NCBI RefSeq assembly: GCF_054482525.1
Contig: NZ_CM137006.1
Reading direction: 5' to 3' (one strand)
Length of the DNA stretch: 64,000 nucleotides
A program made the position numbers and the translations under genes. Positions within the stretch are counted from its first letter, which is position 1. Each line of letters starts with the position of its first letter. Below, piece by piece: positions 1,350 to 45,403 of this stretch. Below the pieces are notes generated by a model that worked only from the letters and a program-made list of their open reading frames with translations, did not search any database and was not told the origin of the DNA.

Positions 1350-4022
1350 ATGACAGATGTAACGATTAAAACGCTGGCCGCAGAGCGACAGACCTCCGTG
1401 GAACGCCTGGTACAGCAATTTGCTGATGCAGGTATCCGGAAGTCTGCTGACGACTCTGTGTCCGCACAAGAGAAACAGACTTTGATTGACCACCTGAATC
1501 AGAAAAATTCAGGCCCGGACAAATTGACGCTGCAACGTAAAACACGCAGCACCCTTAACATTCCTGGTACCGGTGGAAAAAGCAAATCGGTACAAATCGA
1601 AGTCCGCAAGAAACGCACCTTTGTGAAACGCGATCCGCAAGAGGCTGAACGCCTTGCTGCGGAAGAGCAAGCGCAGCGTGAAGCGGAAGAGCAAGCCCGT
1701 CGTGAGGCAGAAGAATCGGCTAAACGCGAGGCGCAACAAAAAGCTGAACGTGAGGCCGCAGAACAAGCTAAGCGTGAAGCTGCTGAACAAGCGAAACGTG
1801 AAGCTGCGGAAAAAGACAAAGTGAGCAATCAACAAGACGATATGACTAAAAACGCCCAGGCTGAAAAAGCCCGCCGTGAGCAGGAAGCTGCAGAGCTCAA
1901 GCGTAAAGCCGAAGAAGAAGCGCGTCGTAAACTCGAAGAAGAAGCACGTCGCGTTGCTGAAGAAGCACGTCGTATGGCGGAAGAAAACAAATGGACTGAT
2001 AACGCGGAACCGACTGAAGATTCCAGCGATTATCACGTCACTACTTCTCAACATGCTCGCCAGGCAGAAGACGAAAGCGATCGTGAAGTCGAAGGCGGCC
2101 GTGGCCGTGGTCGTAACGCGAAAGCTGCGCGTCCGAAGAAAGGCAACAAACACGCTGAATCAAAAGCTGATCGTGAAGAAGCACGCGCAGCAGTACGTGG
2201 CGGTAAGGGCGGAAAACGTAAAGGTTCTTCGCTGCAGCAAGGCTTCCAGAAGCCTGCTCAGGCCGTTAACCGTGACGTTGTGATCGGCGAAACCATCACC
2301 GTTGGCGAACTGGCGAACAAGATGGCGGTTAAAGGCTCTCAGGTCATCAAAGCGATGATGAAACTGGGCGCAATGGCAACCATCAACCAGGTTATCGATC
2401 AGGAAACCGCACAGCTGGTTGCTGAAGAGATGGGCCACAAAGTTATCCTGCGTCGTGAAAACGAGCTGGAAGAAGCGGTAATGAGCGACCGTGACACGGG
2501 TGCAGCGGCTGAACCGCGTGCGCCGGTTGTGACCATCATGGGTCACGTTGACCACGGTAAAACCTCTCTGCTGGACTACATTCGTTCAACGAAAGTGGCC
2601 TCTGGCGAAGCGGGCGGCATTACCCAGCACATTGGTGCATACCACGTTGAAACTGAAAACGGCATGATCACCTTCCTGGACACCCCGGGGCACGCCGCGT
2701 TTACTTCAATGCGTGCTCGTGGTGCGCAGGCAACGGACATCGTAGTCCTGGTTGTTGCTGCCGACGACGGCGTAATGCCGCAGACCATCGAAGCAATCCA
2801 GCACGCGAAAGCGGCGCAGGTTCCGGTGGTGGTTGCAGTGAACAAGATCGATAAACCAGAAGCCGATCCGGATCGCGTTAAGAACGAACTCTCCCAGTAC
2901 GGCATCCTGCCGGAAGAGTGGGGCGGTGAAAGCCAGTTCGTACATGTGTCTGCGAAAGCGGGTACTGGTATCGATGAGCTGCTGGACGCTATCCTGCTGC
3001 AGGCGGAAGTTCTGGAACTGAAAGCGGTACGTAAAGGTATGGCGAGCGGTGCGGTTATCGAATCCTTCCTCGATAAAGGTCGTGGTCCGGTTGCTACCGT
3101 TCTGGTACGTGAAGGTACTCTGCACAAGGGCGATATCGTTCTGTGTGGCTTCGAATACGGTCGTGTTCGTGCGATGCGTAACGAACTGGGTCAGGAAGTG
3201 CTGGAAGCGGGTCCGTCCATTCCGGTGGAAATCCTCGGCCTGTCCGGCGTTCCGGCTGCGGGTGATGAAGTTACCGTTGTACGTGACGAGAAGAAAGCGC
3301 GTGAAGTTGCACTCTATCGTCAGGGTAAATTCCGCGAAGTTAAACTGGCACGTCAGCAGAAATCTAAACTCGAGAACATGTTCGCCAATATGACCGAAGG
3401 CGAAGTTCACGAAGTGAACATCGTCCTGAAGGCAGACGTACAGGGTTCCGTGGAAGCTATCTCCGACTCCTTGCTGAAACTGTCTACTGACGAAGTTAAA
3501 GTGAAGATCATCGGTTCTGGCGTAGGTGGTATCACCGAAACCGACGCTACCCTGGCTGCGGCGTCCAACGCCATCCTGGTTGGCTTCAACGTACGTGCTG
3601 ATGCCTCTGCACGTAAAGTGATTGAAGCGGAAAGCCTGGATCTGCGTTACTACTCCGTCATCTATAACCTGATCGACGAAGTGAAAGCGGCAATGAGCGG
3701 TATGCTGTCTCCGGAACTGAAACAACAGATTATCGGTCTGGCGGAAGTTCGTGACGTATTCAAATCACCGAAATTTGGTGCCATCGCAGGTTGTATGGTT
3801 ACCGAAGGTGTGGTTAAACGTCACAACCCGATCCGCGTTCTGCGCGACAACGTGGTTATCTACGAAGGCGAGCTGGAGTCCCTGCGCCGCTTCAAAGATG
3901 ACGTTAACGAAGTCCGTAACGGTATGGAATGTGGTATCGGCGTTAAGAACTACAACGACGTCCGCACTGGCGATGTGATCGAAGTGTTCGAAATCATCGA
4001 AATCCAACGTACCATCGCTTAA
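1350..4022 (+). CDS. infB: Translation initiation factor IF-2
   Basis: 890-aa ORF; GTP-binding motifs ([17 protein letters not shown]); charged repetitive N-terminal region; position after nusA. Confidence 0.97.
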
Positions 4023-4035
4023 GGTTGTCTGGGTT

Positions 4036-4113
4036 GTAGGCCGGATAAGGCTTTTACGCCGTATCCGGCAGCCGTTGCCTGATGCGACGCTCGCGCGTCT
4101 TATCAGGCCTACA
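4036..4113. repeat. REP/BIME palindromic elements (two inverted REP units)
   Basis: gtaggccggataagg...gccgtatccggca and gcctgatgcgacgc...cttatcaggcctac palindromes in the infB-rbfA spacer. Confidence 0.8.
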
Positions 4114-4142
4114 CAGCCCTTTCCACCTGAGATTAATTTTAA

Positions 4143-4172
4143 AAGGGGCTATGGCCCCTTTTTTGTCAGGAG
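4143..4172 (+). terminator. GC hairpin plus T-run (attenuating terminator-like structure) just upstream of rbfA
   Basis: ggggctatggcccc followed by ttttttg; overlaps rbfA ribosome-binding region. Confidence 0.45.
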
Positions 4173-4180
4173 AATTTATT

Positions 4181-4582
4181 ATGGCGAAAGAATTTGGTCG
4201 CCCGCAGCGCGTAGCGCAGGAAATGCAAAAAGAGATCGCTCTCATCCTGCAGCGTGAAATTAAAGATCCTCGTCTGGGCATGATGACCACCGTTTCCGGT
4301 GTCGAAATGTCTCGCGACCTGGCGTATGCCAAAGTATATGTAACGTTCCTCAACGACAAAGATGAAGACGCGGTTAAAGCGGGCATCAAAGCGTTGCAGG
4401 AAGCTTCTGGTTTCATCCGCAGCCTGCTGGGGAAAGCGATGCGCCTGCGTATCGTGCCGGAACTGACCTTCTTCTACGACAACTCGCTGGTTGAAGGGAT
4501 GCGCATGTCAAACCTGGTGACCAGCGTGGTCAAACATGACGAAGAACGTCGTGTTAACCCGGACGACAGCAAGGAGGACTAA
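4181..4582 (+). CDS. rbfA: Ribosome-binding factor A (30S maturation)
   Basis: [20 protein letters not shown]... 133 aa; start chosen at ATG 4181 preceded by AGGAG rather than the longer track ORF from 4082. Confidence 0.93.
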
Positions 4583-5578: not shown

Positions 5579-5944
<366 letters not shown>

Positions 5945-5960
5945 TTCTTGCGAGTTTCAG

Positions 5961-5990
5961 AAAAGGGGGCCTGAGTGGCCCCTTTTTTCA
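5961..5990 (+). terminator. Rho-independent terminator after rpsO
   Basis: aaaagggggcctgagtggcccc followed by tttttt. Confidence 0.85.
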
Positions 5991-6190
5991 AGCTGACGGC
6001 AGCAATTCACTGGAAACTAATGTATTGTTGCTATGAATGATCTTCCGTTGCAGAGGTTCGCGCGGCTAATGAGAGGCTTTACCCACATTGGGCTGGGTTA
6101 GGGTTGTCATTAGTCGCGAGGATGCGCAGAAGATCGGGTATTAACACCAGTGCCGTAAGGTACTGTCTAAGAAAGAGAAAGGATATTACA

Positions 6191-21616: not shown

Positions 21617-21700
21617 TGTCGGATGCGTCGTAAACGCCTTATCCGACCTACGGTTTGCATCGTTGTAGGCCTGATAAGACGCGGCAAGCGTCGCATCAGG
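21617..21700. repeat. REP/BIME palindromic elements
   Basis: cggatgcgtcgtaaacgccttatccgacctac … gtaggcctgataagacgcggcaagcgtcgcatcaggc. Confidence 0.8.

Positions 21701-45026: not shown

Positions 45027-45403
<377 letters not shown>

Follow-up and report, generated by a model that had tools for sequence, protein, structure and literature searches.

What do the repeats and the hairpin between infB and rbfA do in Escherichia coli, and to which of them should an effect on the downstream genes be ascribed? We addressed this for a stretch of 64,000 nt (the whole of it is called the window below), in which the original prediction, made from the letters alone, had placed two inverted REP units and a terminator-like hairpin in the spacer between these genes, suggesting that the structure could attenuate transcription and/or modulate rbfA translation. 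The idea of attenuation is already published, once for terminator t3 and once for a BIME upstream of rbfA. We consider it very probable that the locus combines a leaky Rho-independent terminator, t3, with a REP pair of younger age in the 3' UTR of infB. Such a site would set the ratio of IF2 to RbfA (and TruB), and a central operon of the translation machinery would be subject there, among other points, to feedback by NusA and to anti-termination on cold shock. As far as E. coli is concerned, t3 is textbook-level knowledge of K-12 and nothing is added to it here; the modest new value is comparative and concerns the order-wide presence of the hairpin, the later arrival of the repeats, and the persistence of the hairpin beyond its U-tract in Morganellaceae.

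The infB-rbfA spacer and its REP pair

The window species is E. coli: over 3900-4300 the sequence agrees with strain PCN033 at 100% identity, and this segment was matched in 5425 of the 5426 complete E. coli genomes. When the RefSeq annotation of PCN033 was transferred, the infB-rbfA spacer came to 4023-4180 (158 nt), which is exactly the span of the original prediction. Upstream of it lies the coding sequence of infB, encoding IF2 (1350-4022, + strand; open reading frame and RefSeq annotation of the identical PCN033 sequence, which places the stop codon at 4020-4022), and the 3' UTR of this gene holds the elements described below. Downstream, rbfA occupies 4181-4582 on the + strand (133 codons, ATG at 4181; RefSeq annotation of the identical sequence and open reading frame list) and is directly followed by truB. 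The Shine-Dalgarno sequence of rbfA, AGGAG at 4168-4172 (+ strand), was recognized in the sequence and lies, according to a 55-sequence alignment, within the motif TGTCWGGAG that is conserved throughout the order. Two other open reading frames were rejected: one of 166 aa (4082-4582) is a mechanical extension of rbfA to an in-frame ATG within a REP, and the other, antisense (4054-4416), was likewise regarded as mechanical. The spacer as a whole folds with a z-score of -5.5 relative to shuffled sequences.

Both of the predicted REP units were indeed present. The first, of Y type and in inverted orientation, spans 4035-4070 (+ strand, TGTAGGCCGGATAAGGC-ttttac-GCCGTATCCGGCA), and the second, of Z2 type, spans 4077-4113 (+ strand, GCCTGATGCGACGCT-cg-CGCGTCTTATCAGGCCTACA). 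In an inverted-repeat search their arms were located at 4040-4051/4058-4069 and 4077-4090/4095-4108, respectively, and an outer inverted repeat of 15 nt (4035-4049/4099-4113) shows that the Y and Z2 units are oppositely oriented. The Y-type consensus matched 4040-4069 with two mismatches and the Z2-type consensus matched 4077-4112 with none, the chance expectation being 0 in either case (100 shuffles); these consensus matches are backed independently by Rfam family RF02564 (naRNA4, a model of the Y + Z2 REP pair), the match of which contains both units and reaches 77.1 bits (gathering score 59.5; E ~1e-12).

Like the REP/BIME elements of E. coli in general, the pair consists of inverted Y and Z2 units, is extragenic, lying in the gap that separates the tandem genes infB and rbfA, and belongs to a dispersed repeat family. 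A further Y unit was found in the window by consensus match at 21618-21647, and the REP part of the spacer matches other places in E. coli genomes (median 2, up to 8 per genome). The pair is not a BIME-1, in which Y is joined to Z1 by a long IHF-binding L linker: its second unit is Z2, and the linker measures only 6 nt (4071-4076). Both the MFE and the centroid structures contain a predicted helix closing the REP pair, formed by GGGUUGU (4031-4037, + strand) and its partner ACAGCCC (4113-4119).

The naRNA4 model derives from REP325, which is an array of six pairs, whereas the infB-rbfA spacer contains a single pair and, unlike REP325, a separate canonical intrinsic terminator after it. REP325 was reported to act as a terminator and stabiliser in the yjdMN operon, its termination being partly Rho-dependent, and REP-containing tandem gene pairs were described as having upstream-biased expression; according to the same source, terminal REPs do not lengthen mRNA half-lives genome-wide, and the nucleoid-organising role of naRNA4 is unsupported and its function disputed (Harris et al. 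2026 preprint). As a functional nucleoid-associated RNA, naRNA4 would be a processed RNA of ~80 nt that binds HU and compacts DNA. The naRNA4-like match in our spacer is a matter of similarity in sequence and structure, and a nucleoid-organising role is not implied by it.

Terminator t3 and the evidence from K-12

The terminator-like hairpin with T6 was confirmed as well. It is composed of an A-tract (4141-4144), GGGGC (4145-4149), the loop TATG (4150-4153), GCCCC (4154-4158) and T6 (4159-4164), and we assign it as intrinsic terminator t3 (4141-4164, + strand) on the basis of the inverted repeat, folding, the K-12 orthologue and the comparison of 117 loci given below. The inverted repeat AAAAGGGGC/GCCCCTTTT (4141-4149/4154-4162) is 100% complementary over 9 bp, including the A and T runs; folding yielded -8.7 kcal/mol for the hairpin core and -13.0 kcal/mol with the A/U extension. 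The G+C-rich stem-loop is thus directly followed by a U-rich tract, as expected of a Rho-independent terminator. Its position had been given as directly over the rbfA ribosome-binding region, which was off by a few bases: T6 ends at 4164 and the Shine-Dalgarno sequence occupies 4168-4172, so that the hairpin lies upstream.

A simple terminator scan of the window listed neither this hairpin nor the rpsO terminator on the + strand, and the same scan in Photorhabdus again listed neither of the two. We treat these misses as a limit of the scan and not as evidence against a terminator; our guess is that the stem was perhaps extended into the A and T runs and the T tail thereby lost. When 4110-4200 was compared with Rfam at a permissive E-value, only generic terminator-like matches were obtained (STnc390 with 19.9 bits, and the terminator end of SraG), and membership in these families was rejected. 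Membership in the rimP leader family (RF01770) was rejected too, at 11.8 bits (gathering score 47; E = 8.9) and with only the terminator end of the model matched.

Nevertheless, the rimP leader, with its NusA-autoregulated t1/t2 at the start of the operon, resembles the rbfA-upstream element in having a short GGGC...GCCC hairpin and a U-tract, although it is a 5' leader and our hairpin is intercistronic. This stem signature of the rimP leader has been called unusual (Naville & Gautheret 2010, PMC2965389), and the t1 sequence of K-12 is GGGCUUUAGGCCC-U7 in the TRS tables of a 2023 re-analysis of 3'-end data (PMC10687069). The rpsO terminator, 1.8 kb downstream (5960-5988), is built in the same style from an A-tract, a GGGGGCC...GGCCCC hairpin and T6; in contrast to t3 it closes the transcription unit, its stem is stronger (-21 kcal/mol for the extended hairpin, PMC10687069), and its opposite strand overlaps SraG.

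In K-12, terminator t3 is drawn just upstream of rbfA (Brandi et al. 2019, PMC6511841). Northern blots revealed a ~4.8-kb rimP-nusA-infB RNA that ends at t3 and, as the product of read-through, a ~6.7-kb RNA extending over rbfA; mRNA levels were higher for infB than for rbfA, about twofold in an earlier study as cited there, and transcript levels increased in mutants with reduced NusA-mediated termination (PMC6511841). Terminated and read-through RNAs thus coexist with a lower level of the downstream gene, as expected of an attenuator, and the proposed attenuation of transcription finds support in this published work (PMC6511841).

Whether RNA 3' ends map to the site is answered differently by two sources. 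The TRS tables contain a 3' terminus at K-12 3313188-3313197 (- strand) with a peak at 3313191-3313193 (supplementary data 2 and 3 of PMC10687069). This terminus is ascribed to infB and classed as an 'alternative primary' terminus in the transcription unit, with the sequence ...AAAAAGGGGCUAACAGCCCCUUUUUUGUCA and a hairpin of -15.2 kcal/mol (PMC10687069). Counting back from the rbfA ATG (K-12 3313178) in identical sequence, the peak corresponds to 4166-4168 of the window (+ strand), 8-10 nt past the stem and close ahead of the Shine-Dalgarno sequence, which is where the 3' end of the terminated infB mRNA would be expected. On the other hand, the curated Term-seq list of Adams et al. 2021 contains, for the LB conditions covered, no 3' end in 3311708-3318213, and none of its tables, including the one for Rho termination, has an entry for infB or rbfA, which also argues against Rho-dependent termination at the REPs. 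The original prediction, which an absence of 3' ends from transcriptome data would have refuted, is not refuted on this point, the list of Adams et al. being the exception. Not every data set, then, shows t3 to yield 3' ends strongly, and we read it as a weak, partial terminator that lies above some thresholds and below others. As for regulation, when CspA, CspC and CspE were overproduced, the internal terminator(s) of metY-rpsO terminated less and rbfA expression rose, according to earlier work cited in PMC9765468 and PMC12562117.

The window site is orthologous in position to t3 of the K-12 metY-rimP-nusA-infB operon, and the elements follow in the same order, namely REP pair, A-tract, G/C hairpin, T6, GTCAGGAG and the rbfA ATG. 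The two alleles differ in that K-12 has a 6-bp stem with an AAC loop, whereas the window has a 5-bp core stem with a TATG loop; the hairpin core of the latter is slightly weaker (-8.7 vs -9.5 kcal/mol in K-12), while its REP flanks (TGTAGGCCGG / CCTACA) are more canonical. The hairpin region is present as a single copy in 5422 of the 5426 complete E. coli genomes. Among these 5422 genomes the window allele is in the minority (at least 99% identical in 472), and the K-12-like allele, ~92.5% identical, is found in 4786. The REP pair and the hairpin are essentially fixed within E. coli, in the form of two main alleles. Mosaic alleles also occur, for example in strain W46.

The S1 mapping was reportedly carried out by Sands et al. 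in 1988, and Bylund et al., in 2001 and 2011, reportedly linked RbfA levels to NusA-stimulated termination inside the operon. Published work traces feedback to termination stimulated by NusA, and the cold induction of rbfA to anti-termination at the internal terminators of the operon by proteins of the CspA family. In the explanation that we prefer, AAAA-GGGGC-TATG-GCCCC-U6 would act as the leaky t3 of the metY-rimP-nusA-infB-rbfA-truB operon. A fraction of the RNA polymerases would let the transcript go ~8-10 nt past the stem (~4166-4168), and the product would be an infB-terminal mRNA ending just before the rbfA Shine-Dalgarno sequence; the remaining polymerases would continue into rbfA-truB, leaving rbfA mRNA below infB mRNA. 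Because termination at t3 is partial, it would also be tunable. NusA and the Csp proteins probably act at t3 specifically and not only at t1 and t2, and the allele of the window strain, with its 5-bp stem and TATG loop, can be expected to behave like that of K-12.

The Y + Z2 pair would be an ordinary BIME-type repeat in the 3' UTR of infB, added within Enterobacteriaceae, and most likely it would serve as a structured barrier to 3'-to-5' exonucleases that stabilises infB mRNA, perhaps with slight added attenuation. Both parts of this suggestion, exonuclease barrier and minor attenuator, are made by analogy with REP325 and with the classic REP stabilisers.

The hairpin and the repeats across Enterobacterales

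For comparison, genomes of 120 Enterobacterales species were retrieved with a degenerate DNA pattern covering rbfA codons 9-20; 116 of them had enough upstream sequence for a hairpin search, which together with the window made 117 loci. A hairpin formed by a G-run and a C-run was located just before the rbfA Shine-Dalgarno sequence in every one of them (117/117). The stems varied (GGGGC, GGGGCU, GGGGGC, GGGGGGC and similar), and the loops measured 3-6 nt with the sole exception of 8 nt in a Sodalis-like endosymbiont. From the 3' end of the stem to the rbfA ATG there were 19-23 nt in most loci and 24 nt in the same endosymbiont; several Citrobacter, Salmonella, K. pneumoniae and Raoultella had a distance of 28-29 nt, with a 7-nt insert. 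Compensatory changes were seen both in the innermost pairs (U-A, U.G, C-G, G-C) and in the outermost ones (C-G, GA/UC, CA/UG). Pairs were counted per sequence and not by column, because the stems of different families were two columns out of register in the 55-sequence MAFFT alignment.

The spacers of Enterobacteriaceae were 82-220 nt long, and those of other families mostly 59-77 nt, the longest being 189 nt in Providencia and 129 nt in one Serratia. No REP-like sequence was detected in the spacers outside Enterobacteriaceae (59-189 nt), all of which contain the hairpin. Among the loci compared, inserts of REP, BIME or ERIC type were confined to Enterobacteriaceae. In most genera of this family the spacer contained a single REP unit. 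The Y-Z pair was found in Escherichia, and also in Citrobacter sp. R56 and Phytobacter massiliensis, and six loci carried an additional ERIC-like element (Salmonella diarizonae, Citrobacter amalonaticus, C. youngae, Raoultella, Pluralibacter and Phytobacter diazotrophicus). From the presence of the hairpin in 117/117 loci and the restriction of the repeats to Enterobacteriaceae, it can be inferred that the hairpin is ancestral to Enterobacterales while the repeats are later arrivals. The infB-rbfA spacer is thus permissive and tolerates insertions.

The U-tract in Morganellaceae and the rival explanations

The U-tract proved to be far less constant than the stem. In the 8 nt after the core, most Enterobacteriaceae had 6-7 T, Pectobacteriaceae 5, most Serratia 4 and most Morganellaceae 2-3. 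In the last family, a very stable hairpin (GGGGGGC-loop-GCCCCCC with added U-A pairs) has an A-tract in place of the U-tract: the 3' flank reads AAA(A)TG and the 5' flank TT, and the stem is extended by U-A instead of A-U pairs. The pairs flanking the core were A-U in 37 distinct sequences and U-A in 21, and pairing at the first two flank levels exceeded that in all 2000 shuffles. In Photorhabdus, the rbfA-upstream hairpin is very stable (-16 kcal/mol) and is not a canonical terminator, while 1.7 kb downstream the rpsO terminator keeps a normal U-tract, so that loss of this tract is specific to the hairpin upstream of rbfA. This loss amounts to a natural experiment in which the role of the hairpin is separated from that of the terminator. 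As a hairpin without a U-tract is maintained in Morganellaceae, termination cannot fully explain its conservation, and it may not be the only role of the hairpin.

These observations are also what speaks for a different explanation, which we regard as somewhat unlikely, namely that the main conserved job of the hairpin is that of an mRNA-end or spacing element and that the U-tract, and termination with it, is a lineage-specific addition of Enterobacteriaceae. Such an element could protect the 3' end of infB mRNA or the processed 5' end of rbfA-truB mRNA, or could shield the rbfA ribosome-binding site from upstream pairing. It would account for a G/C stem that is found in all loci at a near-fixed distance from the ATG, next to a U-tract that varies among families, and for the flip from A-U to U-A pairs, by which the extended stem was retained when the U-tract was lost, at this hairpin and not at the rpsO terminator of Photorhabdus. 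However, the flip may have arisen just once or a very few times, plain termination agrees with the 3' ends and northern bands of E. coli, and an insulating role in E. coli is disfavoured by the predicted accessibility of the Shine-Dalgarno sequence, which is 0.36 with the hairpin and 0.31 when it is deleted in silico. A broader conjecture, in our view rather unlikely, supposes that the hairpin has been kept 19-23 nt before the rbfA start throughout the order for a reason that replaces intrinsic termination or comes on top of it. It might mark a boundary of decay between infB and rbfA-truB (end protection) or be a site of recognition or pausing for NusA/Csp, to which Escherichia may add a decoy arm (4115-4122) freed by the ribosome.

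Attenuation has also been sought in the repeats. A BIME that lies upstream of rbfA, gatY and cvpA was named as a possible attenuator by Naville & Gautheret in 2010 (PMC2965389), with the same locus and the same idea as in the original prediction; in their proposal the repeat itself is the attenuator, whereas our comparison shows the short G/C hairpin further downstream to be what is conserved, and the repeat to be lineage-specific. If the REP pair paused or terminated RNA polymerase, partly via Rho as REP325 does, the downstream hairpin would be secondary, and the upstream-biased expression of REP-containing tandem pairs (Harris et al. 2026 preprint) would agree with this. We nevertheless find it improbable: the sole 3' terminus listed in the K-12 spacer lies at the U-tract hairpin and not inside the REPs (PMC10687069), Adams et al. 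2021 list no Rho-termination region for infB/rbfA, and spacers outside Enterobacteriaceae have the hairpin and no REP-like sequence, while even within the family the REP content is variable (single unit, Y-Z pair, added ERIC). Modulation of rbfA translation, the other effect that had been predicted, found no support, and a hairpin that serves as a translational operator masking the rbfA ribosome-binding site seems very improbable to us. In its favour are the short distances, with T6 ending 3 nt and the stem 9 nt before the Shine-Dalgarno sequence, and a weak helix of the MFE structure (CCUGA 4127-4131 / UCAGG 4166-4170) that encloses the hairpin and takes up part of that sequence. The Shine-Dalgarno sequence (4168-4172) and the ATG are nonetheless outside the conserved stem, which ends at 4158 and so does not sequester the ribosome-binding site, and the predicted unpaired probability of the Shine-Dalgarno sequence, 0.36 in the wild type and 0.31 without the hairpin, is 0.40 when the REP pair is deleted. 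Very improbable too, finally, is a translation-coupled attenuation, modelled as follows: a ribosome terminating at the end of infB would open the helix 4031-4037/4113-4119 that closes the REP pair, whereupon AGCCCUUU (4115-4122) would pair as an anti-terminator with the 5' arm of the terminator (4143-4150), and read-through into rbfA would track infB translation. When 4010-4036 were kept unpaired and the transcript ended at 4153, this anti-terminator pairing was indeed predicted with a probability of 0.98, and without the block the closing helix formed instead (0.91); complementarity as high was reached by 40 of 2000 shuffles of the window sequence and by 94 of 2000 for K-12. This thermodynamic sketch is, however, accompanied by no covariation, its signal is marginal and was seen in Escherichia and in none of the other genera, and when the whole RNA was folded the terminator prevailed (0.96) in spite of the block.

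The rbfA-upstream hairpin and a possible alternative pairing at t3

A hairpin upstream of rbfA is retained in the Photorhabdus locus L007 at approximately 3015-3056, where it takes the form GGGGGGC-loop-GCCCCCC with a folding energy of about -16 kcal/mol. Within the retrieved Enterobacterales set, the same form was retained in all loci of Xenorhabdus, Photorhabdus and Moellerella and in most of those of Providencia, flanked by TT on the 5' side and, on the 3' side, by AAA(A)TG in place of a U-tract. A normal U-tract is present on the rpsO terminator of the same Photorhabdus locus (L007 4826-4850).

In the window, the segment 4115-4122 (AGCCCUUU) is similar to the 3' arm and U-tract of t3, the leaky intrinsic terminator hairpin upstream of rbfA (4141-4164), and is able to pair with its 5' arm (4143-4150). 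The pre-terminator segment AACAGCCCTT of K-12 is a near repeat of the terminator's own AACAGCCCCTT. Statistically, the complementarity is marginal in both sequences.

Detection of t3 in 3'-end data and by terminator scan

A terminus at K-12 3313191-3313193 (-) is given in three tables of TRS 2023 (PMC10687069), whereas the curated Term-seq list of Adams 2021 contains no 3' terminus between K-12 3311708 and 3318213 in the LB conditions covered; the two resources are in conflict at this site. A simple terminator scan of the window gave no hit for t3 or for the + strand rpsO terminator (5960-5988, AAAAGGGGGCCTGAGTGGCCCCTTTTTT). Both in the window and in L007, such a scan appears to overlook terminators with stems extendable into flanking A and T runs.

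Alleles and repeat insertions in the infB-rbfA spacer

Two main alleles of the spacer occur in E. coli, one window-like (~9%) and the other K-12-like (~88%), along with mosaic alleles, for example in strain W46. Between window 4023-4180 and K-12 (L006 279-443, minus strand), the REP flanks and the terminator loop differ, and a 3-nt indel 3' of the Z2 REP unit separates the two main alleles. Two open reading frames overlapping the spacer were rejected: the 166-aa frame at 4082-4582 is rbfA artefactually extended upstream to an ATG within the Z2 REP, and the 120-aa antisense ORF at 4054-4416 is a mechanical artefact of ORF listing.

In several genera of Enterobacteriaceae, the spacer contains an inserted element (...CACCCCGGTCACATAGTTATCTATGCTCCCGGGGATTCAC...) adjoining a single REP unit (L041, L073, L075, L101, L105, L110 and L118), which we presume to be ERIC-like from the ERIC primer sequences. 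This spacer appears to be an insertion hot spot for small repeats. In L108, recorded as Citrobacter freundii strain M-21, it shows near identity to the spacers of the three Atlantibacter loci (L082, L124 and L125) and is unlike those of the remaining Citrobacter loci; this genome may be mislabelled.

Other RNA elements and repeats

The S15 (rpsO) leader (5617-5731, +; RF00114, 117.6 bits), the rpsO terminator located 3' of it, and the sRNA SraG (5961-6132, -; RF00082, 162 bits) are already known features of the rpsO-pnp region. RNase P RNA (rnpB) was found at 45027-45403 (RF00010, 318.6 bits). A further REP unit of the Y type lies at 21618-21647 (-) and departs from the search pattern at 3 positions.
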